Below, in pieces: positions 22,529 through 39,389 of a DNA stretch of 64,000 nucleotides. The DNA comes from Bacteroidia bacterium (GTDB lineage: Bacteria > Bacteroidota > Bacteroidia > Cytophagales > Flammeovirgaceae), in contig JAUIAB010000003.1 of the NCBI GenBank assembly GCA_030425505.1, forward strand, positions 1 through 64,000, read 5' to 3'. Below the pieces are notes generated by a model that saw only the letters and a list, made by a program, of their open reading frames with translations, was not told where the DNA came from and made no database searches. The translations under genes and the position numbers were made by a program. Each line of letters begins with the position of its first letter. Positions within the stretch are counted from its first letter, which is position 1.

Positions 22529-24631
22529 TTGCTACAGATGTTGCTAAGTTTTTTTGATAGTTTTTCCATTTGGTCTTTGCTCATAAGCTTACTTATTTCT
22601 ATTTCTTTAGCTTTAGTACAATACCGTAAGCAAACTAATAAATCCTGGAAGTTTAAACTCCTTTTAGGGATAAAAAGCATAATCTTATTTATCCTTATTC
22701 TTATATTATGTAACCCTCTACTTTTACAACTTAAGGCTAAAAAAATAAAACCTACTATAGCTTTTGCGATAGATAACTCTAAGTCTATACCACAACGGAT
22801 TTCACTAGATTCTATAGCTAAAATTGTTAAGATCTTAGATGCATCTACCAAATCTCTGGCTGAAAAAGGCTATAATGTTGTAGTACATTCTCTAAGTACT
22901 CTTGATAGTTCTTCCAAGGATACTCAAAGCTTATTATTTGATCACACTCAGACAGATTTAAATAATGCTATACAATATTTAACTCAGTTGTACGAATCAG
23001 ATGATTTAAGTGGCATTGTCTTAGTTTCTGATGGTGTCCACAATGCAGGCATTTCACCCATTTATCAAAAATATAGCACCCCAATTTATAGCGTAGGCAT
23101 CGGAGATACTTCCTCAATTATAGACGCCTCTATCTTAGAGGTTAATTATAACAAATATGTTTATTCCGAAAGCATGTTTCCTATAGAGGTAGAAATAAAA
23201 AGTAATGGATTCTCTAACAAGATAGGTAATATTGCATTGTTTTCGAATGGCAAGAAAGTTTCTGAAAAAAAAGTAGACTTTTCTTCTTCAGGCTTTAATT
23301 CTGTACTTTTTAACACTACATCAGCAAAATCAGGAGTAAATAAATATCAGGTTATTTTAGAAGAAGTGCCCGGTGAGTTTACACTTAATAATAATAATAC
23401 TTCCTTTTTTGTAAATGTAATTGATGATAAAAAAAAAGTTTTAATTTTGGCAAACCACCCCCACCCTGATATTAAAGCTATAAAGCAATCTCTCGAAAAA
23501 AAGAAATCATTAGATGTTGACATAAAAACATTATACATTGGTGAGATATTAAATAAGAAGGAGATAGCAAAATTTGATCTGATCATATTGCATGATCTAC
23601 CAGGTTTTGAAACAACTAATTCCCAAGCACGTATTTCTAAATCTTTAGAAAATTACAAAGGCGCTAAGTGGTTTATTTTAGGAAGAGGCACTAATCTAAA
23701 AGATTTTTCTACTTTTAATTCTCTTTTGAATGTAAGCAATGCATACTATAACTACCCGTTGGAGTCTTATCCTATTTTTGAGCCTAGCTTTAAACGATTC
23801 TCTTTTGACACTAACCCAAATGAGATTTTAGAACTTTTTCCTCCACTTCAAATTCCAACAGGTACGTTTTCATTAGCACTTAATGCCGATATCTTATTTT
23901 ACCAAAAGTTTGGCAATGCTGAAAAAAAACTACCTCTCATGGCTCTTAGCAGCTTCTCTAATAGTAAAGAAGCTATTTGGCTGGGAGAAGGTATGTGGCA
24001 GTGGAAAATGCAAGAGTTCTTAAAAAACAAGAATAGTGACTTCTTTGATGAACTGGTGAATAAAACAGTACTCTATTTGACCTCAAAAGAAAATAAAAGT
24101 AAGCTACGAGTTGAGCCTGTTAAGGATGTTTTTTTGAATAATAACTCTATTGTTTTTGATGTTTCGACTTATGATGACCTTTACAAGGAAATCTTTGACC
24201 AGAAAATTAGTTTGAAGGTTCAAAATTCAACTGGAAAAGTTTACTCTTATGACTTTATTAATTACACTAACCAATTTAAAATCACAAGCTTACCAGAAGA
24301 TACATATCGTTTCATAGCCACAAGTGTCATTAATAATAAGCGGGAAAAATCTACAGGAGGTTTTTCTGTGCAAAATATTGATTTTGAGTCTATCAATCTA
24401 CAAGCAGATCATAATCTTTTGAGAATCGTGTCTAATAATAGTGGAGGACAATTTTATTCTATTACTGATATTAACTCACTTGAAAAGTACTTATCGAAAA
24501 ATAAGCCAACAGAAAATGTATATGAAGAAAAAGAACTAAGTACTATCATTGATTTTAAGATTTTACTTTTTTTGATTATTGTGCTAGCAGGTATTGAATG
24601 GACTCTTAGAAAAAGATCTGGGCTTTATTAA
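22529..24631 (+). CDS. N-terminal double-transmembrane (BatA-like) protein with vWA-like domain and C-terminal TM anchor
   Basis: 700 aa. Two N-terminal TM helices are followed by IAFAIDNSKSI (vWA D-x-S-x-S MIDAS start). There is a C-terminal TM (ILLFLIIVLAGI). Confidence 0.55.
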   Translation: MLQMLLSFFDSFSIWSLLISLLISISLALVQYRKQTNKSWKFKLLLGIKSIILFILILILCNPLLLQLKAKKIKPTIAFAIDNSKSIPQRISLDSIAKIVKILDASTKSLAEKGYNVVVHSLSTLDSSSKDTQSLLFDHTQTDLNNAIQYLTQLYESDDLSGIVLVSDGVHNAGISPIYQKYSTPIYSVGIGDTSSIIDASILEVNYNKYVYSESMFPIEVEIKSNGFSNKIGNIALFSNGKKVSEKKVDFSSSGFNSVLFNTTSAKSGVNKYQVILEEVPGEFTLNNNNTSFFVNVIDDKKKVLILANHPHPDIKAIKQSLEKKKSLDVDIKTLYIGEILNKKEIAKFDLIILHDLPGFETTNSQARISKSLENYKGAKWFILGRGTNLKDFSTFNSLLNVSNAYYNYPLESYPIFEPSFKRFSFDTNPNEILELFPPLQIPTGTFSLALNADILFYQKFGNAEKKLPLMALSSFSNSKEAIWLGEGMWQWKMQEFLKNKNSDFFDELVNKTVLYLTSKENKSKLRVEPVKDVFLNNNSIVFDVSTYDDLYKEIFDQKISLKVQNSTGKVYSYDFINYTNQFKITSLPEDTYRFIATSVINNKREKSTGGFSVQNIDFESINLQADHNLLRIVSNNSGGQFYSITDINSLEKYLSKNKPTENVYEEKELSTIIDFKILLFLIIVLAGIEWTLRKRSGLY

Positions 24632-24699
24632 AGGAAGCTTTTTAAAGTTTTAGTTTTTAAAATGATCTAAAACGTTCTTTTGCATAAAGAATTACAAGA

Positions 24700-24861
24700 A
24701 TGAGCGAAATTATTTTTATAGTTGAAGAATCTCCTGAAGGAGGGTTTGAAGCAAAGGCTTTAGGACACTCAATTTTTACGAAAGGAGACACTATTGAAGA
24801 AGTTAAAATAATGTTAGAGAAGCCGTTCGCTGCCATTTTGATAGAGAAACCCCTAAAATAA
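24700..24861 (+). CDS. hicB: HicB-family (UPF0150) type II antitoxin, short form
   Basis: The 53-aa ORF MSEIIFIVEESPEGGFEAKALGHSIFTKGDTIEEVKIMLEKPFAAILIEKPLK matches the HicB N-terminal fold consensus (...E.DGG.....P.LPGC.TQGDTLEEA..N..EA). Confidence 0.55.
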   Translation: MSEIIFIVEESPEGGFEAKALGHSIFTKGDTIEEVKIMLEKPFAAILIEKPLK

Positions 24862-24898
24862 TTAGGCTACACTACGTAAAAGAAGAAGTGCTAGCAGC

Positions 24899-25146
24899 AT
24901 GAAATTACCTAGAAATTTATCTGGAAAAGAGCTAATTAAAAAAGTTGAAAAATACGGCTATAAAACCACTCGTCAAATAGGTAGTCATATTCGATTAACA
25001 ACTGAAGATGAAGGAAAACACCATATTAAATACCAGCTCGCAAGCCATTAAAAGTGGGAACTCTATCTAATATTTTAAAAGAAATAGCGACCCATTTTAA
25101 TAAAACAAAGGATGATATTGTAGCTGAGCTTTTCACAGAACTATAG
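24899..25146 (+). pseudogene. hicA: HicA-family mRNA interferase toxin gene, disrupted by a frameshift at ~25028-25030
   Basis: Frame 1 gives MKLPRNLSGKELIKKVEKYGYKTTRQIGSHIRLTTEDEGKHHIK... then a stop at 25049. An alternate frame from ~25030 gives IPARKPLKVGTLSNILKEIATHFNKTKDDIVAELFTEL*. Joined, they match the HicA consensus (...GSHxxL....HHITIPxHKPLKxGTLxxILKxxA). The shift falls in an AAA run. Confidence 0.55.
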
Positions 25147-25396
25147 TGAACATATTTTTACTTAAACAAACCTAAAATTTCCACCTATTTTTTGAGTATA
25201 TTGATGTATACACTATTTTGCATGTAAATACCATAGTATTGGTATAAAGATCTTCCCTGGCTGACTGATAAATCAGCTGGAAGCGCGAAAAAAGTGGAGG
25301 GTAAAGTCCTGATGAGAGTTTCGAAAAAGCTCCATAGTATTGATCTGGTTAGACTCAATATGCTACTTTGCTTAGAAGCTGTTTTTCTTAATCCAT

Positions 25397-25427
25397 AGGT
25401 TGAGGGTTCGAATCCCTCTTGTATACT
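25397..25427 (+). other. tRNA-derived fragment: T-arm plus 3' acceptor strand without a foldable 5' part
   Basis: GAGGG-TTCGAAT-CCCTC T-arm followed by TTGTATAC. I could not fold the upstream 80 nt into D or anticodon arms. Confidence 0.35.
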
Positions 25428-25435
25428 ATGTATAT

Positions 25436-25498
25436 AATAGCTCAATTGGTTAGAGCGATGGGCTTGTTCTCGTGGGTTCGAATCCCACTTTCTCCACT
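25436..25498 (+). other. tRNA-like remnant: canonical D-arm joined almost directly to a T-arm and 3' acceptor strand, with no anticodon arm
   Basis: TAGCTCAATTGGTTAGAGC (D-arm), 15 nt, GTGGG-TTCGAAT-CCCAC (T-arm), then TTTCTCC-A. The 5' acceptor complement is absent at the expected position. Confidence 0.4.
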
Positions 25499-25499
25499 A

Positions 25500-25545
25500 T
25501 GGGGAAATGGCGGAGTGGTCAAACGCGATAGATTCAAAATCTATG
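25500..25545 (+). other. 5' half of a tRNA-Leu(CAA)-like gene (acceptor 5' strand, D-arm, anticodon arm) with no downstream variable arm or T-arm
   Basis: GGGGAAA-TG-GCG-GAGTGGTCAAA-CGC-G-ATAGA-TTCAAAA-TCTAT gives a type-II-like D-loop and anticodon loop U33-CAA-A37. GGGGAAA is complementary (with G-U) to the TTTCTCC located 3 nt upstream. Confidence 0.4.
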
Positions 25546-25787
25546 AACTCACCCCGATTAGGTGATCAGAAGAAGGCTAACTTCTAAAAATAGCCACCAT
25601 AAAAACAGAAGAGGTAAAGCCTGCTTTTTACTACACATGTAGCATTAAGCAGTCTTGAAAAAGCTTCGAAGTTAAAGGGATACCGTAAGGTGGAACGGTT
25701 TACTTTTTTTAGTACTGTTGGAAGTATAGTTAAGCTTTTGCCTAACTACATTAAAAACAGATATTTAAAAAACTACTCCACGAAACT

Positions 25788-26981
25788 TTGCTCAACTTTA
25801 GTTCCGTTTTTGATAAGATGGTTTTACTTCTATCTGTTTTTTCTAAGGAGAAAAAAAATGTATTAACGCATAAACACATGAAAAAGATAAAAATTGCAAC
25901 AGGAAAGGTAGGGTTAGTTTTTAATAAAGGTGTATATAAGAAAGTAATAGAAGAAGGAAGCCACTGGATAGGTTTTGGGGATGAAGTTAAAGAATACAAC
26001 TTAAGAACTAGTCTTGCCACAGATTTTGGCATTGAGTTATTGATAGAAAAAGATAAAAAATTAGCAGACTTAATTGAGATTGTAATCATAGAAGATCATG
26101 AAATAGCTTTACGATTTGACTCTGGAATATTTCAATATGTTTTAATACCAGGTAAGTACGTTTTTTGGAAGAGAGTAGTAAAGCGAGAGTTTGTCAAAAT
26201 AGATTTGAATAAAATTGAAATAACAGAAAACATAAAGCCCAAACTACTAAAGCACCCTTCTTTATTGCCCTACATTAGAGCTTATACTATTCAATCGTAT
26301 GAAAAAGGAATACTTTTCATTAATGGGAAATATGAAAAGATATTAGAAGAAGGAAGCTATAATTTTTGGAGTAACCATATCCCAATAGAAGTTTTAAAAG
26401 CGGATATGAGACAACAGCAAATGGAAGTATCTGGGCAGGAAATTCTCACAAAAGATAAAGCTACCATTCGAATAAATTTTTATGCCATATATCAGGTTAA
26501 TGACATTAATAAAGCCTTAAGAGAAAATAAAGATTATGAAAAGCAGCTCTATACTCTTTTCCAATTAGCCTTAAGAGAGTTTATTGGAACGCAGACTTTA
26601 GATGAGATGCTGAATAATAAAGAAGCTGCTTCTAGTTACGTAATAGATGGACTCAAAAGTAAAATTGAGGATCTGGGAGTTGAAGTAAAGCGCTGCGGGA
26701 TTAGAGATATTATTCTTCCTGGAGACGTGAAAGAAATAATGAACCAAGTATTAATTGCTCAAAAAAAGGCTGAAGCAAATGTTATTACCAGAAGGGAAGA
26801 AACTGCCTCTACAAGAAGCTTGCTTAATACTGCCAAACTCATGGAAGATAATGAGATGCTCTTTAAATTAAAAGAAATGGAGTATGTAGAAAAGATTGCA
26901 GAGAAAATAAATAGCATTTCTGTATCTGGTGGAGGACAAATAGTCGATCAACTTAAAGAAATATTCGTTCAAAAGAAGTAA
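25788..26981 (+). CDS. SPFH/band-7 (stomatin/slipin-like) domain protein with ~170-aa N-terminal extension. The true start may be the internal Met at ~25878 (MKKIKIATGK).
   Basis: 397-aa ORF. The C-terminal half has the SPFH pattern (TKDKATIRINFYAIYQV...TLDEML...IEDLGVEVKRCGIRDIILPGDVKEIMNQV...AEANVI). No NfeD partner is adjacent. Confidence 0.6.
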   Translation: MLNFSSVFDKMVLLLSVFSKEKKNVLTHKHMKKIKIATGKVGLVFNKGVYKKVIEEGSHWIGFGDEVKEYNLRTSLATDFGIELLIEKDKKLADLIEIVIIEDHEIALRFDSGIFQYVLIPGKYVFWKRVVKREFVKIDLNKIEITENIKPKLLKHPSLLPYIRAYTIQSYEKGILFINGKYEKILEEGSYNFWSNHIPIEVLKADMRQQQMEVSGQEILTKDKATIRINFYAIYQVNDINKALRENKDYEKQLYTLFQLALREFIGTQTLDEMLNNKEAASSYVIDGLKSKIEDLGVEVKRCGIRDIILPGDVKEIMNQVLIAQKKAEANVITRREETASTRSLLNTAKLMEDNEMLFKLKEMEYVEKIAEKINSISVSGGGQIVDQLKEIFVQKK

Positions 26982-29975: not shown

Positions 29976-32021
29976 TTATAACCTACCCATATCAAACCTC
30001 CATACTCCTCTTCCATAAGTACTAACATAAAGTTTTCGAGTTTTATAATGAATATCAATGTCCATAACTCGCGTATTTGGTAAGCCTCCACCAACTTTTT
30101 CCCAATATATCTTATCTGAATCAGAGCTGTAAAGCCCAAGCTCAGTACCAAGAAACAGTTTATTAGAAACCTCATCATATACTATACTCAAAACAGGAAT
30201 ATTTGGTAGATTCTCAGATATATTTTCAAAAGATTTACCCCGGTTCTTTGAAAAGAAAACCTTTCTACCTTCATTATAACCTTCATCTATTATCCATAGC
30301 TGATCTCTTTTACTCGGGTGGGGTTCTAACCTCTTTAACTTTTTAGAATCAAAATCATATCTAGACCAGCTTCTTCCCCCATTTGATGACTCTAGGATGG
30401 AAGATTTTGTAATAGCATAAATAGAACGATCATCATTTTTAGTAAATCGAATATCTCTGATTTTCTCATCAGCTGAAATATTTTTATCAGCAATTTTTTC
30501 CCATGTATCTCCATAATTATAACTCAAAAATATTTCCTTAGATGCAACAATTATCTTCCCCGATAGCTGCCAGCTAAGATCAAAAGGAGATACCCAATCC
30601 GCCTTACCCTTATATCCAGGAATATTCTTTTCAATTCTTTTCTTTGTTTTCCATCCATCCATTGTTCTATACAACTCCTTACCTGAAGGAAAAGTAGAAA
30701 AACCAACCTTAGCATTTTGAGGGTCGATCGCATTGCTTACTGCATCTCCTCCATTACCGTTAATCAAACCAGTTTCTGGAGAGTAGAATCCTCCGCCATT
30801 ATCTTGGGAACCAAAGAAATATGTATTTTCAGCACTTTGAGCAACAAATGTTCTGTAAACCTGAGTAATGCACAGACCATCATTTAGCTCCTTCCATTTA
30901 CCTGTCGACTCCGAGTACTCATAAACACCTCCATCATTACCCCAGTATATCTTATCATTTAGAGGATTATATACAGTAACCCACTGGTCTAAATGAACAT
31001 AGTCCTCACCCTTTTGCGTCGTGAGGTTTTCAAACGTTTTTCCGTTATCCAATGATCTTTTAATTCTTCCATACCCAGAGTAGATTATATCTTCATTTTT
31101 TGGAGACACAAATATTCTACTCTTTTTTAAATGATCAATCCTATCATTAGAAACCCAGGTTTCACCATTATCTAAAGAGTAATGGATTTTCTTTTCATCA
31201 CCTATTACTGTCTGAACAACAACTTTGTTTGGATTAGCTGGTGTCACCGCTACATTTAGCTTTCCATTTTCTTCAAAATCAAAATTGGTAACATTTTTCC
31301 AGCTTAAGCCTCTATCTTCAGATTTAAAAAGATCTGTATTTACCCCCTTATAATCCCACCAAGCCAAATAAGCTATATTCGGGTTTTTAGTATGAAAAGC
31401 TATTTCCAGAGCGTTTCCCCACCCTCCCTTAGAAGATTTTGGAAGACCTTCATTTGCCAGATGAAAACTAATCCCATCAGTCGATCGATATACTCCCGCT
31501 GTAGTAGCAACTATCAACAAATTTGGTATGTGGGGACTACCTTTCATATCAAGATAAGCAACTCTATCTTCTAGTTTAGTATTCAAAGAAGTGGCACTCC
31601 AGGTATTTCCTCCATCCGTACTTCTGTAAACACCCATCCCATAATCCCACCATCCTACCCTATCTCCTACAGTAATATGAATAGTATTGGGGTTAGCTTG
31701 ATCAACTACTACATTACCCGCAGAATTGTAAGGCAAATTATCACCTATTGACCTATAAGACCTTCCTCCATCTTCCGTTTCCCAAATTCCTCCTTTTGGT
31801 GCTCCTACGTAAAAAATATTTTCATCGGTAGGATGAAAAGCGATATCACTAACTCTTCCCATTCCCCAATACTGTCCAGAACGCTTTTTAGGTCCCAGAA
31901 ACTCCCATACAGAGCTTTTATTCTCTTGAGAATACGAGTACAAGTTTGTTACAATGAGCAGTAAAGTTGCTTTCACTAAGGTTTTTGTACGATTTTTTTC
32001 AAAAAAAACAGTCTTTGCCAT
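29976..32021 (-). CDS. Secreted BNR/Asp-box repeat beta-propeller protein (sortilin-Vps10 / GH74 / Ycf48-like fold), paralog 1
   Basis: 681 aa with a signal peptide and multiple Asp-box motifs (STDGGNTW, SEDRGLSW, SLDNGETW, SLDNGKTF, SNGGRSW, SKNRGKSF). Confidence 0.7.
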   Translation of the reverse strand: MAKTVFFEKNRTKTLVKATLLLIVTNLYSYSQENKSSVWEFLGPKKRSGQYWGMGRVSDIAFHPTDENIFYVGAPKGGIWETEDGGRSYRSIGDNLPYNSAGNVVVDQANPNTIHITVGDRVGWWDYGMGVYRSTDGGNTWSATSLNTKLEDRVAYLDMKGSPHIPNLLIVATTAGVYRSTDGISFHLANEGLPKSSKGGWGNALEIAFHTKNPNIAYLAWWDYKGVNTDLFKSEDRGLSWKNVTNFDFEENGKLNVAVTPANPNKVVVQTVIGDEKKIHYSLDNGETWVSNDRIDHLKKSRIFVSPKNEDIIYSGYGRIKRSLDNGKTFENLTTQKGEDYVHLDQWVTVYNPLNDKIYWGNDGGVYEYSESTGKWKELNDGLCITQVYRTFVAQSAENTYFFGSQDNGGGFYSPETGLINGNGGDAVSNAIDPQNAKVGFSTFPSGKELYRTMDGWKTKKRIEKNIPGYKGKADWVSPFDLSWQLSGKIIVASKEIFLSYNYGDTWEKIADKNISADEKIRDIRFTKNDDRSIYAITKSSILESSNGGRSWSRYDFDSKKLKRLEPHPSKRDQLWIIDEGYNEGRKVFFSKNRGKSFENISENLPNIPVLSIVYDEVSNKLFLGTELGLYSSDSDKIYWEKVGGGLPNTRVMDIDIHYKTRKLYVSTYGRGVWRFDMGRL

Positions 32022-32029
32022 AATATTTA

Positions 32030-34051
32030 TTATTGATTAATACTTTTAATATCTATTCTCCATAAGCCTCTCCCAAAAGTGCTTACATATAGCTTTCGAG
32101 TTTTATGATGAATCTCTAGATCCATTACCAGAGTATTTGGAATTATACCATCTATCTTTTTCCAGTTTACTGTCTGAGTACCAATAAAGAATATTCCCAA
32201 TTCAGTACCAACAAATAAACTCTTTGTTACATCATCATATACTAAACAATAGACTGGTATATTAGGAAGGTTTGCAGAGATATTTTCAAACGATTTCCCC
32301 CTATTGCTCGAAAAAAACACTTTCTTCCCATCCTCATACTTACAGTTAACGACCCATAGCTTATTTCCATCTTCTGGATGAGGAATTATTCTTCTTAGAT
32401 TTTTTACATCTAAAGAATGTATATTCCAATTTTTTCCATTATTAGAAGACTCACATACAGCGTTTTCAGTAATAGAATAAATCGAATTGTTATCTTTTGG
32501 AGAAAACTGTATATCTATTATTTTATCTCCTTTTTCAAGACCAGTAATACACTTCTCCCAGGTTTCCCCATAATCATAGCTAAGGAAAATGTTTTCTGAG
32601 GCTACCGCAACACAACCCAAAACAACAGAACTTAGTGCTAGAGGGGTTTTCCATGTTGCAGTACCATAATAATTAGGGACTTTTTTTTCGATTTTTTCTG
32701 AAATTTCCCAACCATCAAATGTTCTGTGAATTGCCCTACCAGATGGATATGTTGAGAATATTACTTTGTTATTTGATACATCGATTGCATTGCTTACAGC
32801 ATCACCTCCATTCGTATTTACCCAGCCTGTTTTTGGAGTGAAGTATGCTCCGCCATTGTCCTGAGTTCCAATTATATACTCATCTACAGTACTTTGTGAT
32901 ATCGATGCTCTATGAATTTGAGTTATAGCTAAAGTATTACTTAACTCTTTCCATAAGTCTGCTCCTTCCTGATACTCGTAAATACCTCCATCATTACCCC
33001 AGTATATCTTGTCATTCAGCGGATTATACACAGTAACCCATTGATCACCATGTACTCTAACTTTTCCTCTGGTTGAGGTCAAGTTTTCAAAGCTCTTTCC
33101 CCCATCTACAGACTTTTTAATTTTAGTAAATCCTGTATAAAGGACACCTTCATTTTTCTGAGAAATAAATAATCTGCTTTTTTTATTCGTGTAATCTTCT
33201 AAATCATAGGTAACCCAGTTTTTCCCATTATCTAAAGAAGAATGTATTTGTGCTTTTTCATCAACTACCGTTTGAACTACAAGCTTATTAACATTAGCAA
33301 TAGTAACCGCTGCTGATATTGCTCCTCTGCTTTTGAATGGCTGATAAAATAACTCCTTCCATGAGTGCCCCCTATCCTGAGACTTAAACAAAATTACTTT
33401 TTTATTTCTCTTATCCCACCAGGTCAAATAAACTATATTACTATTTTTAAGGTGGAAAACGATTTCCTGAGGATTTCCTCTTCCTCCTTGAGAAGGTCTA
33501 GGTAAGTCTTCTTCAACTAACCGAAAGTCTTCTCTATTTTCACTTCGAAAAACACCTTTATTCGTTGCAACTAAAATTAAATCAGATATATGAGGACTTT
33601 CTTTCATGTCTAAATAAGTCACTTTTTCTTCTAAATCAGAAACTAAGCTTGTAGATTGCCATGAAACCCCTCCATTTTCCGTTTTATAGATGCCCATTCC
33701 ATAATTCCACCAACCCATTCTATCGCCTAAAGTAACTCGGATTATCTGTGGGTTATCTTTACTGACTACTATGTTGCCCACAGAGTTATAAGGAAGGTTA
33801 TCTCCAATAGATTCATATGACTCCCCACCGTTCGTGGTTTTCCAAATACCCCCATGTGGAGCTCCTACATAAAAAATATTAGCATTAGTAGGATGAAACG
33901 CAATATCCGTAACTCTACCCATGCCCCAATACCCACCTGACCTTTCTAAAGGACCTAAAAATTCTGAAGAACTATATGTTTGAGCAAAGCAATACTTTGC
34001 AAGCAATAGAGAAAATACTAAGAAAATAAGCTTTTTAGTTTTTTGAAGCAT
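32030..34051 (-). CDS. Secreted BNR/Asp-box repeat beta-propeller protein, tandem paralog 2
   Basis: 673 aa. The protein is colinear with paralog 1 (EFLGP..RSG.YWGMGRV.DIAFHPT..NIFYVGAP.GGIW.T..GG.SY.SIGDNLPYNS). DNA is ~85% identical over conserved blocks, e.g. 30935-30995 versus 32985-33045. Confidence 0.7.
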   Translation of the reverse strand: MLQKTKKLIFLVFSLLLAKYCFAQTYSSSEFLGPLERSGGYWGMGRVTDIAFHPTNANIFYVGAPHGGIWKTTNGGESYESIGDNLPYNSVGNIVVSKDNPQIIRVTLGDRMGWWNYGMGIYKTENGGVSWQSTSLVSDLEEKVTYLDMKESPHISDLILVATNKGVFRSENREDFRLVEEDLPRPSQGGRGNPQEIVFHLKNSNIVYLTWWDKRNKKVILFKSQDRGHSWKELFYQPFKSRGAISAAVTIANVNKLVVQTVVDEKAQIHSSLDNGKNWVTYDLEDYTNKKSRLFISQKNEGVLYTGFTKIKKSVDGGKSFENLTSTRGKVRVHGDQWVTVYNPLNDKIYWGNDGGIYEYQEGADLWKELSNTLAITQIHRASISQSTVDEYIIGTQDNGGAYFTPKTGWVNTNGGDAVSNAIDVSNNKVIFSTYPSGRAIHRTFDGWEISEKIEKKVPNYYGTATWKTPLALSSVVLGCVAVASENIFLSYDYGETWEKCITGLEKGDKIIDIQFSPKDNNSIYSITENAVCESSNNGKNWNIHSLDVKNLRRIIPHPEDGNKLWVVNCKYEDGKKVFFSSNRGKSFENISANLPNIPVYCLVYDDVTKSLFVGTELGIFFIGTQTVNWKKIDGIIPNTLVMDLEIHHKTRKLYVSTFGRGLWRIDIKSINQ

Positions 34052-36182: not shown

Positions 36183-39100
36183 ATGAGGAAAATTATAGAG
36201 CAATTTGTCAAATACGGAATTCTATCTAATACAGTTATTGCAGTTACCATTATTGCTGGGGTAGTGGCTCTCTTAAATACAAAAAAGACATTCTTCCCTG
36301 AAAGAGAGCTAAAAGCAATAACTATCCAAATTACCTATCCAGGAGCTTCTCCTGAAGAAGTAGAAGAAGGAATAACCCAGAAAATTGAAGAAGAAATTCG
36401 AAATATTCCTGGAGTCGAAGAAATTAACTCTACCTCGTCTGAAAACTTTGCCAGCATCAATATTAAGATTTTGGAAAGTGAAGATCTAGATGATGCCTAT
36501 ACAGAAATTAAGAATGCTGTTGATAGAATTAGTTCTTTCCCAGTAGGAGTAGAACGACCGATTATCTTTAAAAACAGATCCAGATCTACAGTTTCTTGGG
36601 TTGCACTTTATAGTGAAGATAATTCTACAGATTTACTACGATTGAAAAGTGTTGCAGATAGAATTAGAGATGATTTTCTTAGAAGTGGAAAAGTTTCGCA
36701 GGTAATACTAAGTGGCTTTCCTCCACTCGAAATAGCTATTGAAGTAGCAGAAGAAAGATTGCTAGAGTACGGATTAACATTTGATCAGGTTTCTCAGGCA
36801 GTAAGTATGGCTAATAGAGATATTTCTGGAGGCTCTATCAAAACAAAAAATGAAGAAATCTTAATTAGATCCAGAGGGAAAAGAACAGAAGTTGATAAAA
36901 TCAAAGATATAGTCTTAAGAGCTAATAATGATGGTAGCCTTATTTTACTTAGGAATGTAGCTGATGTAAAACTCCAGTTTGAAGATAGACCCGTAAAAGA
37001 TATTCTTAATGGGAAACAAATAGTTTCTATTAGAGTAGACAAGCTTATCACGGAAGATATAGATGAAGTTGCAGGCTATGTAGAAGAATATGTAGAAAAA
37101 TTTAATAGTGAAACGGAAGGTTTAAAATTAGAAATTACTTTCAGCTTTATTGATATGCTGAAGCAGCGAATCAGCATGTTGCTTGAAAATGGGTTGATGG
37201 GTTTAATTTTAGTTCTAATTTCTTTAAGCCTTTTTTTAAATACTCGTCTATCTCTTTGGGTTGCTTGGGGTATTCCTTCCTCTTTCCTGGGTCTTTTCAT
37301 AATTGGAAGCTTTGTGGGTTTCACGATCAATATGATCTCTTTGTTTGGAATGATTCTGGTTATTGGAATTCTAGTAGATGATGGTATTGTAATAGCAGAA
37401 AATATATACTCCCATTTTGAAAAAGGGAAAAACCCCTACAGAGCTGCAGTAGATGGCACACTAGAAGTATTACCAGCTGTAACAACTTCTGTACTTACTA
37501 CAATGGTAGCCTTTACACCAATTCTGTTACTACAAAGTGGTTTTAGCTTCTTAAGAGATATGGCTATCGTAGTCATAGCAAGCCTTGGGTTTTCACTTTT
37601 AGAGGCTTTCTTTGTACTACCAGCTCACTTAGCAAGCCCTCATATTTTACGATCCAAAAAGAAAACCAATTTTGCAACAAAAATTAGAGGCAAGATAAAT
37701 CAGGCAATTAATTTCTTACGATATAAGATTTACGGTTCTGTTCTTCGTATTACAATGAAGTACAAGTGGGTAAGTATGGCTTTCTTAATAGCATTATTTC
37801 CTATTACTATCGGATTGTTTGGTGGGGGTTTCATTAAAGCCACTTTTTTCCCAAATATTCCTTTTTCTCAGATCAACTTGAATTTGACATTAAAGGCAGG
37901 TACAAGAGAACAAGTAGTAGAGAAAATGCTAGTTGATTTTGAGTCTAAAATTTGGGAAGTGAATAAAGAACTAAAGAAAAAATATGCTGAAGAAAAAGAT
38001 TTCGTTGAATATTCAATAATCTCCCTGGGAAATAACTCTGATGGAGAGTCTGGATCTCATGCGGGCACCATTCAAATATTTTATAGAGATATGGATGATA
38101 TGCCAATTAGCGGTAGAGACTTAGGACAAGCTATTTCCAAAAAGATTGGTAATGTATCAGAAGCAGAGAAGTTTTCTGTAGGAAATGTATCAAGGTTTGG
38201 TAAGCCAGTAGCAGTTAAGCTGATAGGCAAAAACTTCAAAGAATTAAATAGTGCTTCTGAGTTTTTGAAAGCTGAGTTAGCCAAGATTGATGCTCTGAAA
38301 GAAATCAAAGATGATCAATCCGTTGGTAATAGAGAGCTCAGGTTAGCTTTAAAATCGAAAGCACATTTTTTAGGCCTCACTCACAATGAAATATCAAGGC
38401 AGGTCAGACAAGGTTTTTTCGGTGATGAAGTTCAACGATTGCAAAAAGGAAAGGATGAAGTAAAAGTCTGGGTTCGATTCCCCAACTCAGGAAGGCTTAA
38501 TTTAGGACAGTTAGAAAAAATGAAAATCAAATATGCTGGTGCTGAGTATCCTCTTAATGAGCTAGTAGATTATAACATTAAAAGAGGAATATCCGATGTG
38601 AAGCATTTTCAAACGGCTAGAACAGTTACAGTAGATGCTGAGTTAGTTGATCCTTTTGCTGAGGTTCCTCCTATTACAAATAAAGTTTTTGGAGAAATTG
38701 TACCTCAACTAAAAGCTAAGTTTCCTGGAGTAATAATAGATACTGGTGGTCAGGTTAGAGAGAGCAATAAATCGAGGCAGGAAATGCTTTTATATTTTGC
38801 AGGAGCATTTTTTATCATGTTTTTAATAATAATGATAAACTTCAAATCTTTTTATCAGGCAGTTTTAATAGTCTCGATGATTCCATTAGGCTGGCTAGGT
38901 GCTACTTGGGGGCATGGTCTACACGGTCATCCTGTTTCCATCCTTAGTGCCTGGGGGATGGTGGCACTTTCAGGAGTTATTATCAACGATGCTGTAGTCT
39001 TTTTAGATAAATTTAACAGAAATATGAAAGAAGGAATGAGCGTTTATGATGCTGCCTATGATGCTGGACTGGCTAGGTTTAGACCTATACTTCTAACTTC

Positions 39101-39389
39101 TATTACCACCGTTTTAGGTCTTTATCCTTTAATACTAGAAACAAGCTTCCAGGCTCAGTTCCTCGTGCCAATGGCTATTTCTGTTGCTTGGGGAGTTTTA
39201 ATAGGAACTATGATCATCCTACTATTTTTCCCTGTTCTCATCTTATACTTCAATCAAGTAAGAGTATGGATGAAGTGGGCATGGACTGGCTCTAAACCAA
39301 AAAATGAAAATGTAGAAAGAGTGATAATTGATAAAGGCAAAGACAGATTACTCCACCCTAATGAAGAGATTGTTTTAGAAAAAGATTAA
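36183..39389 (+). CDS. RND efflux transporter permease (AcrB/CzcA superfamily)
   Basis: 1068 aa with 12-TM RND architecture and two large periplasmic loops. Conserved TM4 region VIGILVDDGIVIAENI. Confidence 0.9.
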   Translation: MRKIIEQFVKYGILSNTVIAVTIIAGVVALLNTKKTFFPERELKAITIQITYPGASPEEVEEGITQKIEEEIRNIPGVEEINSTSSENFASINIKILESEDLDDAYTEIKNAVDRISSFPVGVERPIIFKNRSRSTVSWVALYSEDNSTDLLRLKSVADRIRDDFLRSGKVSQVILSGFPPLEIAIEVAEERLLEYGLTFDQVSQAVSMANRDISGGSIKTKNEEILIRSRGKRTEVDKIKDIVLRANNDGSLILLRNVADVKLQFEDRPVKDILNGKQIVSIRVDKLITEDIDEVAGYVEEYVEKFNSETEGLKLEITFSFIDMLKQRISMLLENGLMGLILVLISLSLFLNTRLSLWVAWGIPSSFLGLFIIGSFVGFTINMISLFGMILVIGILVDDGIVIAENIYSHFEKGKNPYRAAVDGTLEVLPAVTTSVLTTMVAFTPILLLQSGFSFLRDMAIVVIASLGFSLLEAFFVLPAHLASPHILRSKKKTNFATKIRGKINQAINFLRYKIYGSVLRITMKYKWVSMAFLIALFPITIGLFGGGFIKATFFPNIPFSQINLNLTLKAGTREQVVEKMLVDFESKIWEVNKELKKKYAEEKDFVEYSIISLGNNSDGESGSHAGTIQIFYRDMDDMPISGRDLGQAISKKIGNVSEAEKFSVGNVSRFGKPVAVKLIGKNFKELNSASEFLKAELAKIDALKEIKDDQSVGNRELRLALKSKAHFLGLTHNEISRQVRQGFFGDEVQRLQKGKDEVKVWVRFPNSGRLNLGQLEKMKIKYAGAEYPLNELVDYNIKRGISDVKHFQTARTVTVDAELVDPFAEVPPITNKVFGEIVPQLKAKFPGVIIDTGGQVRESNKSRQEMLLYFAGAFFIMFLIIMINFKSFYQAVLIVSMIPLGWLGATWGHGLHGHPVSILSAWGMVALSGVIINDAVVFLDKFNRNMKEGMSVYDAAYDAGLARFRPILLTSITTVLGLYPLILETSFQAQFLVPMAISVAWGVLIGTMIILLFFPVLILYFNQVRVWMKWAWTGSKPKNENVERVIIDKGKDRLLHPNEEIVLEKD

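Follow-up and report, generated by a model that had tools for sequence, protein, structure and literature searches.

A conserved RNA with two tandem tRNA mimics next to an SPFH/Band-7 gene in a Bacteroidia genome

Is a cluster of tRNA-like sequences without a complete tRNA the wreckage of a tRNA gene, or is it an RNA gene of its own? This question is raised by the plus strand around 25190-25600 of a 64,000-nucleotide (nt) stretch of contig JAUIAB010000003.1 from a Bacteroidia bacterium of the Flammeovirgaceae (the whole 64-kb stretch is called the window below). A preliminary description had noted three tRNA-like pieces there, all of which are indeed present, and had considered either a circularly permuted gene for a tRNA or transfer-messenger RNA (tmRNA) or the scars left at a tRNA-Leu gene by insertions and excisions that occurred again and again. 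We conclude with good confidence that roughly positions 25240-25710 (+), about 470 nt, represent one intact, conserved and structured non-coding RNA (ncRNA) and not tRNA wreckage. Its core consists of two tandem tRNA mimics with the topology of YrlA RNAs (T-arm, closed acceptor hairpin, D-arm); neither module has a free CCA end, and the two tRNA-shaped bodies are not aminoacylatable as they stand. The RNA has several domains, is conserved and covarying, and is linked obligately to a gene for an SPFH/Band-7 protein and facultatively to RtcB, RlaP, a WYL regulator and tRNA genes. As no terminator is conserved between the RNA and the start of the SPFH/Band-7 gene 3' of it, the two probably share a transcript.

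Two tandem tRNA mimics with closed acceptor hairpins

Relatives were searched for in one genome per GTDB species with a spacing pattern derived from the window (T-loop, 20–26 nt, AGCTCA, 26–33 nt, T-loop). The arrangement of the window was met again at 119 or more genomic loci; all locus counts given below refer to the matches listed among these. Most listed loci belong to Bacteroidota (Chitinophagaceae, Saprospiraceae, Pedobacter, Sphingobacterium, Flavobacteriales including Chryseobacterium, and Cytophagales), and further ones come from Clostridia, Thermoactinomycetaceae, Fretibacterium and a few others.

The two mimics (25392-25544) repeat the unit of T-arm (T1, T2), closed acceptor hairpin (Acc1, Acc2) and D-arm (D1, D2); module 1 is closed by a stem P1 and module 2 adds an anticodon arm (Table 1). 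Their T-arm/acceptor segments have different sequences, and the pairing partner of each is the strand downstream of it. The core structure (P1, T1, Acc1, D1, T2, Acc2 and D2) was scored on alignment A3, made with MAFFT from 114 distinct sequences, in which 93.6% of the cells are paired compared to 65.9% in shuffles and 38–48% with slid partners, and the covariation score is 0.735 compared to 0.203 in shuffles, with none of 500 shuffles scoring as high. The paired cells amount to 92% for P1, 99.6% for T1, 95.4% for Acc1 and 99.8% for D1 in module 1 and to 97.4% for T2, 87.6% for Acc2 and 83% for D2 in module 2, and every pair of P1, Acc1 and Acc2 shows two-sided changes. An alignment-free, anchored count gave 0.88 for Acc1 and 0.49 with shuffled partners. 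Both acceptor hairpins of the window have 7 base pairs (bp), the seventh pair being formed in just 53–55% of the relatives. RNAalifold on a MAFFT alignment of the downstream half resolved T2, Acc2, D2 and the anticodon-like hairpin only, the rest being too variable in length, and no conserved pairing was detected in alignment A3 for the linker between the modules (25463-25471).

A covariance model, R1, was built from 113 relatives with the window left out and matches 25390-25535 over its full length (102.4 bits, E = 3.5e-24). The sole other R1 match in the 64 kb (38428-38526, 11.4 bits, E = 0.24) lies around GGGTTCGATTCCC inside an open reading frame (ORF) of 1068 amino acids (aa; 36183-39389) and is most likely due to chance.

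With this structure the three pieces can be read anew. The first one had been taken for a mere T-arm and 3'-acceptor fragment, but its 5' partner lies directly downstream (TTGTATA-CTATG-TATATAA) and had been missed. The second piece, with the D-arm string TAGCTCAATTGGTTAGAGC at 25438-25456 joined over 15 nt (25457-25471) to the second T-arm and TTTCTCC-A, is present as described (25438-25496), but treating it as one tRNA-like unit is a misparse: a conventional tRNA acceptor across the modules, formed by the 5' strand of hairpin 1 and the 3' strand of hairpin 2, is paired in 52% of the cells. We could confirm that GGGGAAA (25501-25507) pairs with TTTCTCC across 7 bp including one G-U; the gap between the second and the third piece is 4 nt (CTAT) and not 3 nt. 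The tRNA-Leu-type D-arm and the anticodon-like hairpin ascribed to the third piece also hold, but not the statement that no variable arm follows, as a variable-arm-like hairpin (TCACC..GGTGA) is found at 25549-25565. This hairpin is absent from most relatives, and the Leu-like D-arm is common to some of them, others having a class-I D-arm.

Module 2 comes close to a complete tRNA body: it includes a full anticodon-arm mimic, in which the triplet varies freely. A stem of 5 bp with a 7-nt loop is located 0–2 nt past the D2 stem in 88 of the 114 relatives, and in 82 of them by exactly 1 nt, the position found in tRNA. The loops obey the tRNA rules to a large extent (n = 88: Y32 in 77, U33 in 71, R37 in 83 and A38 in 59). 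The triplet itself is not conserved, with 25 different ones listed among the 88 relatives and CAA of the window being one of many. A G3:U70-type pair as in the window is present in 7 of the 114 relatives and is thus not an alanine identity signal. In a Flavobacteriales relative (L014, ~3147-3000, minus strand) a third T-arm GAGGTTCGAATCCTC follows past module 2, so the number of tRNA-like modules varies within the family.

Flanking domains and comparison with known RNA classes

The core is embedded in further domains (Table 1). Upstream of it, at a constant distance, 67 Bacteroidota relatives carry a three-way-junction domain in which the strands CCUGAUGA and AUGCUG hardly vary. Overall 87.2% of its cells are paired (65.7% in shuffles) and its covariation score is 0.616 (0.220 in shuffles, with 0 of 500 as high). 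Many compensatory changes are seen in helices Pa (92–98% paired) and Pb (98.8%), and support for Pc (59% paired as a whole) is limited to its first four pairs with 69–78%. At the place of the 5' hairpin P0 the relatives have a hairpin of different sequence, again followed by a purine-rich stretch (alignment A1). Downstream of the core, an H-type pseudoknot motif made of a stem, an A-rich linker and a complement to the loop, all with differing sequences, was found in 46 of 116 listed loci but only in 9 of 348 shuffles (counted when S1 and S2 together reach at least 10). Further downstream, GATACC occurs 118–221 nt past T-loop 2 in about one third of the listed loci, in Bacteroidota and Firmicutes alike. 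The folding energy of 25240-25715 is somewhat better than that of shuffled sequences (z = -2.2).

Promoters of Bacteroidetes follow the consensus TTG/TAnnTTTG. A candidate for such a promoter at 25192-25220 is one position off this consensus, and from it the RNA would be expected to start near 25226-25240. At the other end, 17 of 105 listed loci have an intrinsic terminator ahead of the SPFH start, compared to 24 of 525 shuffles; this lack of conservation rules out a terminator as the conserved 3' end of the RNA.

Other structures were considered and rejected. CUGAUGAG (25309-25316) resembles a hammerhead ribozyme core, but the hairpin is followed by AUAG and not GAAA, and no Rfam hammerhead model matched at E <= 10. 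A closing helix for module 2 between GGCTTGTTCT (25461-25470) and AGAAGAAGGC (25569-25578) was discarded because the linker is variable and the 3' strand belongs to the stem of the pseudoknot, and for a preQ1-I riboswitch as identity of the pseudoknot there was no Rfam match. Two observations concern the window sequence itself. CTGTTTTT (25379-25386) could possibly form a long-range pairing with AAAAACAG (25601-25608). Moreover, CCATAGTATTG occurs twice (25243-25253 and 25333-25343), the second copy belonging to the conserved Pa/Pb junction, and a third copy of CCATAG lies where module 1 begins (25394-25399).

Table 1: Features of the RNA element and the adjacent gene in the window.
Feature	Position	Strand	Description and basis
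Candidate Bacteroidota-type promoter	25192-25220	+	TTG 25192-25194, 19 nt, TATTTTG 25214-25220; read from the sequence
5' hairpin P0	25252-25283	+	CTTCC..GGAAG, inner GCTGA..TCAGC; candidate hairpin read from the sequence
Purine-rich stretch after P0	25284-25294	+	CGCGAAAAAAG
5' three-way-junction domain	25300-25372	+	67 Bacteroidota relatives
Helix Pc	25300-25306, 25366-25372	+	GGTAAAG with CTTTGCT
Three-way-junction strand	within 25300-25372	+	UCCUGAUGA
Helix Pa	25312-25320, 25328-25335	+	AUG 25312-25314 with CAU 25333-25335; GAGUU 25316-25320 with AGCUC 25328-25332
Helix Pb	25338-25342, 25356-25360	+	UAUUG with CAAUA, then UGCUA
Module 1	25392-25462	+	YrlA Rfam match, 114 relatives, R1 match
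Module 1 closing stem P1	25392-25396, 25458-25462	+	UCCAU with AUGGG; anticodon-stem analogue
Module 1 variable loop		+	AGGUU, between P1 and T-arm
Module 1 T-arm (T1)	25402-25418	+	GAGGG-TTCGAAT-CCCTC, then TTGTATA 25419-25425
Module 1 closed acceptor hairpin (Acc1)	25419-25437	+	UUGUAUA-CUAUG-UAUAUAA, then U8 A9
Module 1 D-arm (D1)	25440-25456	+	
Linker joining the modules	25463-25471	+	CUUGUUCUC; length and sequence variable in relatives (A3)
Module 2	25472-25544	+	114 relatives, RNAalifold
Module 2 T-arm (T2)	25472-25488	+	GTGGG-TTCGAAT-CCCAC, then TTTCTCC 25489-25495, A 25496
Module 2 closed acceptor hairpin (Acc2)	25489-25507	+	UUUCUCC-ACUAU-GGGGAAA
Module 2 D-arm (D2)	25510-25526	+	tRNA-Leu type
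Module 2 anticodon-arm mimic	25528-25544	+	ATAGA-TTCAAAA-TCTAT
Extra hairpin	25549-25565	+	UCACC-CCGAUUA-GGUGA; lies where a type-II variable arm would be; from the window sequence
H-type pseudoknot candidate	25571-25595	+	S1 AGAAG 25571-25575 with CUUCU 25581-25585; linker AAAAAU
Pseudoknot S2	25592-25595, 25575-25578	+	AGCC with GGCU inside the S1 loop
3' domain	25596-25710	+	Variable helical region, then conserved hairpin GGGAUACC-GUAA-GGUG 25677-25692, then UUUACUUUUUUU
Intrinsic-terminator-like site	25682-25699	+	ACCG..CGGU and T-run; overlaps the conserved GGAUACC hairpin
SPFH/Band-7 gene	25878-26981	+	367 aa counted from MKKIKI; Pfam Band_7 E = 3.2e-32; no RtcB gene after it

As the preliminary description had suspected, there is no ordinary intact tRNA at this locus. 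ARAGORN, in a run that covers permuted tmRNA detection, found no tRNA and no tmRNA gene in the 64-kb window, and in 60 related loci it never called the modules. With gathering thresholds applied, Rfam gave nothing but a borderline match to the tRNA model (25436-25490, 29.1 bits with a gathering score of 29) in which the anticodon arm is collapsed; at best this model reaches 29.1 and 29.0 bits, both on chimeric units. As the cross-module stem is paired in 52% of the cells, the Rfam tRNA match is a chimera of the two modules. A canonical cloverleaf with an acceptor formed from the 5' and 3' ends was not found, nor does the RNA belong to the tmRNAs or permuted tmRNAs, whose models RF00023 (18.5 bits) and RF04321 (tmRNA_permuted, 17.7 bits) remain far below the threshold of 47.

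The permuted order itself is real. In module 2 the 3' half lies directly upstream of the 5' half, separated by a 5-nt loop, and this order is conserved in the relatives. The module might therefore be the precursor of a working adaptor, as the permuted-tRNA layout would suggest: RNase P would open the hairpin of module 2 and the trimmed 3' strand would receive CCA, giving a chargeable permuted or two-piece molecule that is possibly joined by RtcB. Such a route would have a precedent in the YrlA of M. smegmatis, which has a 7-bp acceptor stem as have both hairpins of the window, and is cut by RNase P before CCA is added (bioRxiv 10.1101/312249), and RtcB, which is encoded by relatives, belongs to the ligase class joining tRNA halves. 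However, the tRNA and tmRNA searches are negative, the seventh acceptor pair is formed in little more than half of the relatives, neither the anticodon triplet nor the G3:U70-type pair is conserved, no tag reading frame was identified and the window lacks RtcB. In alignments A2 and A3 no conserved helix connects what lies 5' of T2 to what lies 3' of the anticodon arm, and neither a terminal processing junction nor a defined anticodon was found. To our knowledge, no bacterial endonuclease is known for the processing step of permuted tRNAs. We regard maturation into an adaptor as very unlikely; of the earlier proposal of a permuted tRNA or tmRNA-like gene the topology stands and the function is unsupported.

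Comparison with the known permuted RNAs leads to the same picture. The permuted tRNA genes of Cyanidioschyzon merolae, as outlined by Soma et al. 2007, share the 3' half directly upstream of the 5' half and a short sequence closing the acceptor, but they mature to canonical tRNAs via splicing endonuclease, a circular intermediate and RNase P/Z, whereas the window RNA has no conserved junction helix or anticodon. With two-piece tmRNA it shares an acceptor 3' piece encoded ahead of the 5' piece, and the window hairpin happens to have both a G3-U70-like pair and A in the discriminator position; it differs in the negative ARAGORN result, the low Rfam scores, the rare G-U pair and the absence of a tag ORF and of a pseudoknot series.

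In a more permissive Rfam search covering 24500-26500, the best non-tRNA match is YrlA (RF02553, 25394-25460, 36 bits, E = 1.1e-5), which is below the gathering score of 69 and spans model positions 23-85 only, meaning T-arm, closed acceptor stem and D-arm, with 1-22 and 86-114 unmatched. In 3 of 8 relatives tested the model matches both modules (33–42 bits), and the partial sub-threshold pattern holds in most of them. In the description of YrlA as a tRNA mimic its acceptor stem is closed, "resembling circularly permuted tRNAs" (bioRxiv 10.1101/312249). Both RNAs have the same order, with an anticodon-stem analogue enclosing T-arm, closed acceptor stem-loop and D-arm, keep the elbow nucleotides (GG in the D-loop and the T-loop TTCGAAT) and are encoded in RNA-repair operons (Chen et al. 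2014; Wang et al. 2018). Thus, the tRNA-like module of YrlA is present, with P1, T1, Acc1 and D1 backed by covariation. A genuine Ro60/Rsr-binding Y RNA of the YrlA family with its rsr gene elsewhere in the genome would explain this identical module topology and the YrlA match, but the match is far below the gathering score in the window and in most relatives, and P1 is short (5 bp) and does not continue into a Ro-binding helix. There is also no rsr linkage: no TROVE/Rsr domain was detected among 18 window ORFs of suitable size scanned with Pfam or in the 15 commonest neighbour families of the 119 listed loci, and the invariant partner is SPFH and not Rsr. Furthermore, the window RNA has tandem modules and a true anticodon-arm mimic, which YrlA does not possess. 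A Y RNA in the strict sense is in our view very unlikely.

The SPFH/Band-7 gene and the genomic neighbourhood

The SPFH/Band-7 gene starts 168 nt past the end of the RNA in the window, and 94 of the 98 listed loci with enough sequence have a homologue on the same strand no more than 1.5 kb downstream of the RNA. Clustering of gene families identified an SPFH neighbour in 104 of 119 listed loci. The distance from T-loop 2 to the SPFH start is near-constant with ~300–450 nt on the same strand, but the 100–180 nt that separate the conserved RNA from the start codon are not conserved. Other families recur less regularly. RtcB follows the SPFH gene in 36 of 60 listed loci with enough downstream sequence, a divergent WYL-WCX regulator is found upstream of the RNA in 22 of 70, and the recurrent neighbour families by Pfam are RtcB, WYL+WCX, RlaP nucleotidyltransferases, RNaseH_like and an AAA ATPase. 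Genuine tRNA genes (1 to 14) accompany the element in 29 of 60 listed loci, often as same-strand arrays just upstream (L003, L013, L017, L025, L028, L068 and L109 are among the loci with tRNA genes upstream). Frequently the last gene of such an array is tRNA-Phe(GAA). Species for Lys(UUU), Asn, His, Asp, Gln, Tyr and Arg(ACG), all of them typical targets of anticodon nucleases, are abundant.

This association connects the RNA to a known prediction. As summarized by Wang et al. 2018 (bioRxiv 10.1101/312249), Burroughs and Aravind 2016 described RtcB beside a Band-7 protein and a predicted ncRNA, termed band-7-associated tRNA, or b7a-tRNA, in some bacteria; according to the same summary YrlA occasionally adjoins a Band-7 gene, all of this being without experimental validation. 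A tRNA-like ncRNA next to a Band-7/SPFH gene is seen in the window and in 94 of 98 listed relatives, and this genomic association suggests that the window RNA belongs to the b7a-tRNA class. We infer that it is an SPFH/Band-7-associated tRNA-like RNA of the RtcB-type RNA-repair systems of that 2016 prediction, as far as the summary conveys it. Shared with b7a-tRNA are the tRNA-like character and the adjoining Band-7/SPFH gene; RtcB lies in the same operon in many genomes. Compared via this summary only, the window RNA differs in having two closed-acceptor modules (95% and 88% paired) and not one cloverleaf (52%), in its much greater length with 5' junction domain, pseudoknot and 3' hairpin, and in the lack of RtcB in the window. 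The window locus is a reduced version with RNA and SPFH gene and without RtcB, WYL regulator, RlaP or tRNA array.

The position of the RNA also raises the alternative of a cis-acting leader, meaning that it is the 5' untranslated region of an SPFH(-RtcB) operon whose modules sense a tRNA-directed activity (cleavage by an anticodon nuclease or a tRNA-binding factor) and switch downstream expression. The near-fixed distance on the same strand, the lack of a conserved terminator in between and the pseudoknot with its A-rich linker after the tRNA-like part would be in line with this, and the terminator-like hairpin of the window that overlaps the GGAUACC hairpin could be an attenuator. However, no alternative terminator/antiterminator pairing was found, the sequence in front of the start codon is not conserved, and in one third of the loci the divergent WYL regulator is a more obvious controller. 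In addition, yrlA and yrlB sit inside the rsr-yrlBA-rtcBA operon of Salmonella and yet act as separate RNAs, so co-transcription does not imply cis regulation. A leader therefore appears rather unlikely to us.

The neighbourhood also answers the question of wreckage. According to this explanation the tRNA-like pieces are att-site copies left behind when elements repeatedly entered and left a tRNA-Leu gene, and the preliminary description had seen the adjacent hicBA pair as favouring an integration hotspot. The T-arm and 3'-acceptor fragments beside hicBA do resemble such debris, but only superficially. It is refuted by the conservation of the element, compensatory changes included, in several phyla and no fewer than 119 genomes, by the embedding in conserved non-tRNA domains, by the fixed SPFH synteny and by the score of the window-free model R1. 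No integrase domain was found among the 18 window ORFs scanned with Pfam, there is no intact target tRNA in the window and no duplicated 3' end, and hicBA is not among the recurrent neighbour families of the RNA in other genomes. We see practically no chance for debris.

In the window, the hicBA region (24700-25051) comprises a hicB-like ORF of 53 aa without Pfam match and a short hicA-like ORF of 50 aa that matches positions 1-32 of the 58-position HicA_toxin profile (26.8 bits with a cutoff of 27); the pair may be truncated or decaying. Between RNA and SPFH gene, a weak match to Rfam freshwater-2 (25804-25861, 22.9 bits compared to 49.9, E = 1.1) has AAGGAGAAAAAAAATG at its end. With AAGGAGAAAAAAAATG begins a mini-ORF of two codons (ATG TAT TAA), 17 nt ahead of the likely SPFH start (25878). 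A Shine-Dalgarno-like sequence as strong as this one is unusual for Bacteroidota. Neither the SPFH protein nor its neighbours gave a specific NCBIfam family or a PADLOC defence-system match. The remaining window contains housekeeping genes including engB, recJ and gatB. Two adjacent paralogues on the minus strand (29976-34051, 681 and 673 aa) with hydrophobic, signal-peptide-like N-termini are unrelated to the RNA; the first gene, the only one of the two scanned, matches Sortilin-Vps10 and BNR repeats.

The pattern also matched 11 times in viral contigs, and tblastn detected no SPFH, RtcB, WYL or RlaP homologue at these 11 matches. Several lower-scoring R1 matches in viral contigs are ordinary tandem tRNA genes. 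Three phage-like contigs (L124 5636-5777, L126 41-191 and L131 11586-11726) carry two-module tRNA-like units with R1 scores of 85–87 bits near terminase, portal or primase genes, without SPFH, RtcB, WYL or RlaP. In L124 one outer stem GGGGGCG/CGCCCCC seems to close both modules in place of a module-1 stem.

Possible function and significance

In no fewer than 119 species the RNA and the SPFH gene go together almost without exception, while RtcB is optional, which points to the SPFH protein and not the ligase as the direct partner of the RNA. The RNA would most likely act as a partner of the SPFH protein, presenting a tRNA-shaped surface together with an exposed, freely evolving anticodon loop. 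Its role might then be that of a decoy or sentinel towards anticodon nucleases or, alternatively, of a platform that brings damaged tRNAs to the ligase for re-ligation. Such a pairing would parallel that of YrlA with Ro60/Rsr. The eukaryotic vault particle combines the major vault protein, which has an SPFH-type fold and forms large assemblies, with vault RNA and with TEP1, which carries a TROVE (Ro-like) domain. The likeness lies in a protein of SPFH-type fold and a small structured RNA; it does not extend to a cage or to packaging of RNA, and the RNAs are unrelated in sequence.

It could also be possible that the element represents a so far undescribed class of multi-domain bacterial RNAs of ~450–500 nt of which b7a-tRNA would be just the visible tip, acting with a cytoplasmic SPFH assembly in a sentinel or decoy role, although we put this forward only tentatively. 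Such an RNA would combine a 5' three-way junction, whose CCUGAUGA/AUGCUG core is invariant, with two tRNA bodies that are permuted and closed at the acceptor, a free-triplet anticodon-arm mimic, an H-type pseudoknot and a GGAUACC hairpin common to Bacteroidota and Firmicutes. In fuller loci the back-up would come from RtcB, RlaP and as many as 14 spare tRNA genes in arrays. This architecture is absent from Rfam 15, which has no family matching it and none for b7a-tRNA, and it was not found in the searchable literature. Searches for SPFH with RtcB, SPFH with tRNA-like and RtcB with WYL brought up no later literature on this RNA.

Several points weigh against identifying the window RNA as part of an SPFH-dependent repair system. 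No RtcB, WYL or RlaP homologue was detected in the 64-kb window by tblastn, so that the link to repair is given by homology of the RNA-SPFH pair and not by the local context. The b7a-tRNA identity is taken from the summary of the 2016 prediction in Wang et al. 2018 (10.1101/312249). Binding to the SPFH protein and the decoy, sentinel and scaffold roles are pure inference, and the putative ends of the RNA were placed solely by conservation and by motifs that resemble a promoter and a terminator. Finally, the relatives were collected with a window-derived pattern, which makes the T-loops and AGCTCA invariant by construction and without evidential weight; the independent evidence consists of the hairpins, P1, the flanks and the synteny.

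In summary, apparent tRNA wreckage becomes a clean and testable RNA gene. Its class has been missed by standard annotation, as tRNA finders reject it, Rfam holds no model for it and the Rfam tRNA model reports a cross-module chimera; the covariance model R1 together with the structure could seed an Rfam family. RNA and SPFH protein offer a minimal two-component system for study, and as the carriers include cultured strains of Pedobacter, Chitinophaga, Chryseobacterium, Sphingobacterium and Ruminiclostridium, the predicted Band-7/tRNA-like ribonucleoprotein of 2016 is directly testable. The window RNA adds a member to a predicted class without experimental characterization, and it is the extended architecture and the minimal pair of RNA and SPFH protein that are most worth attention.

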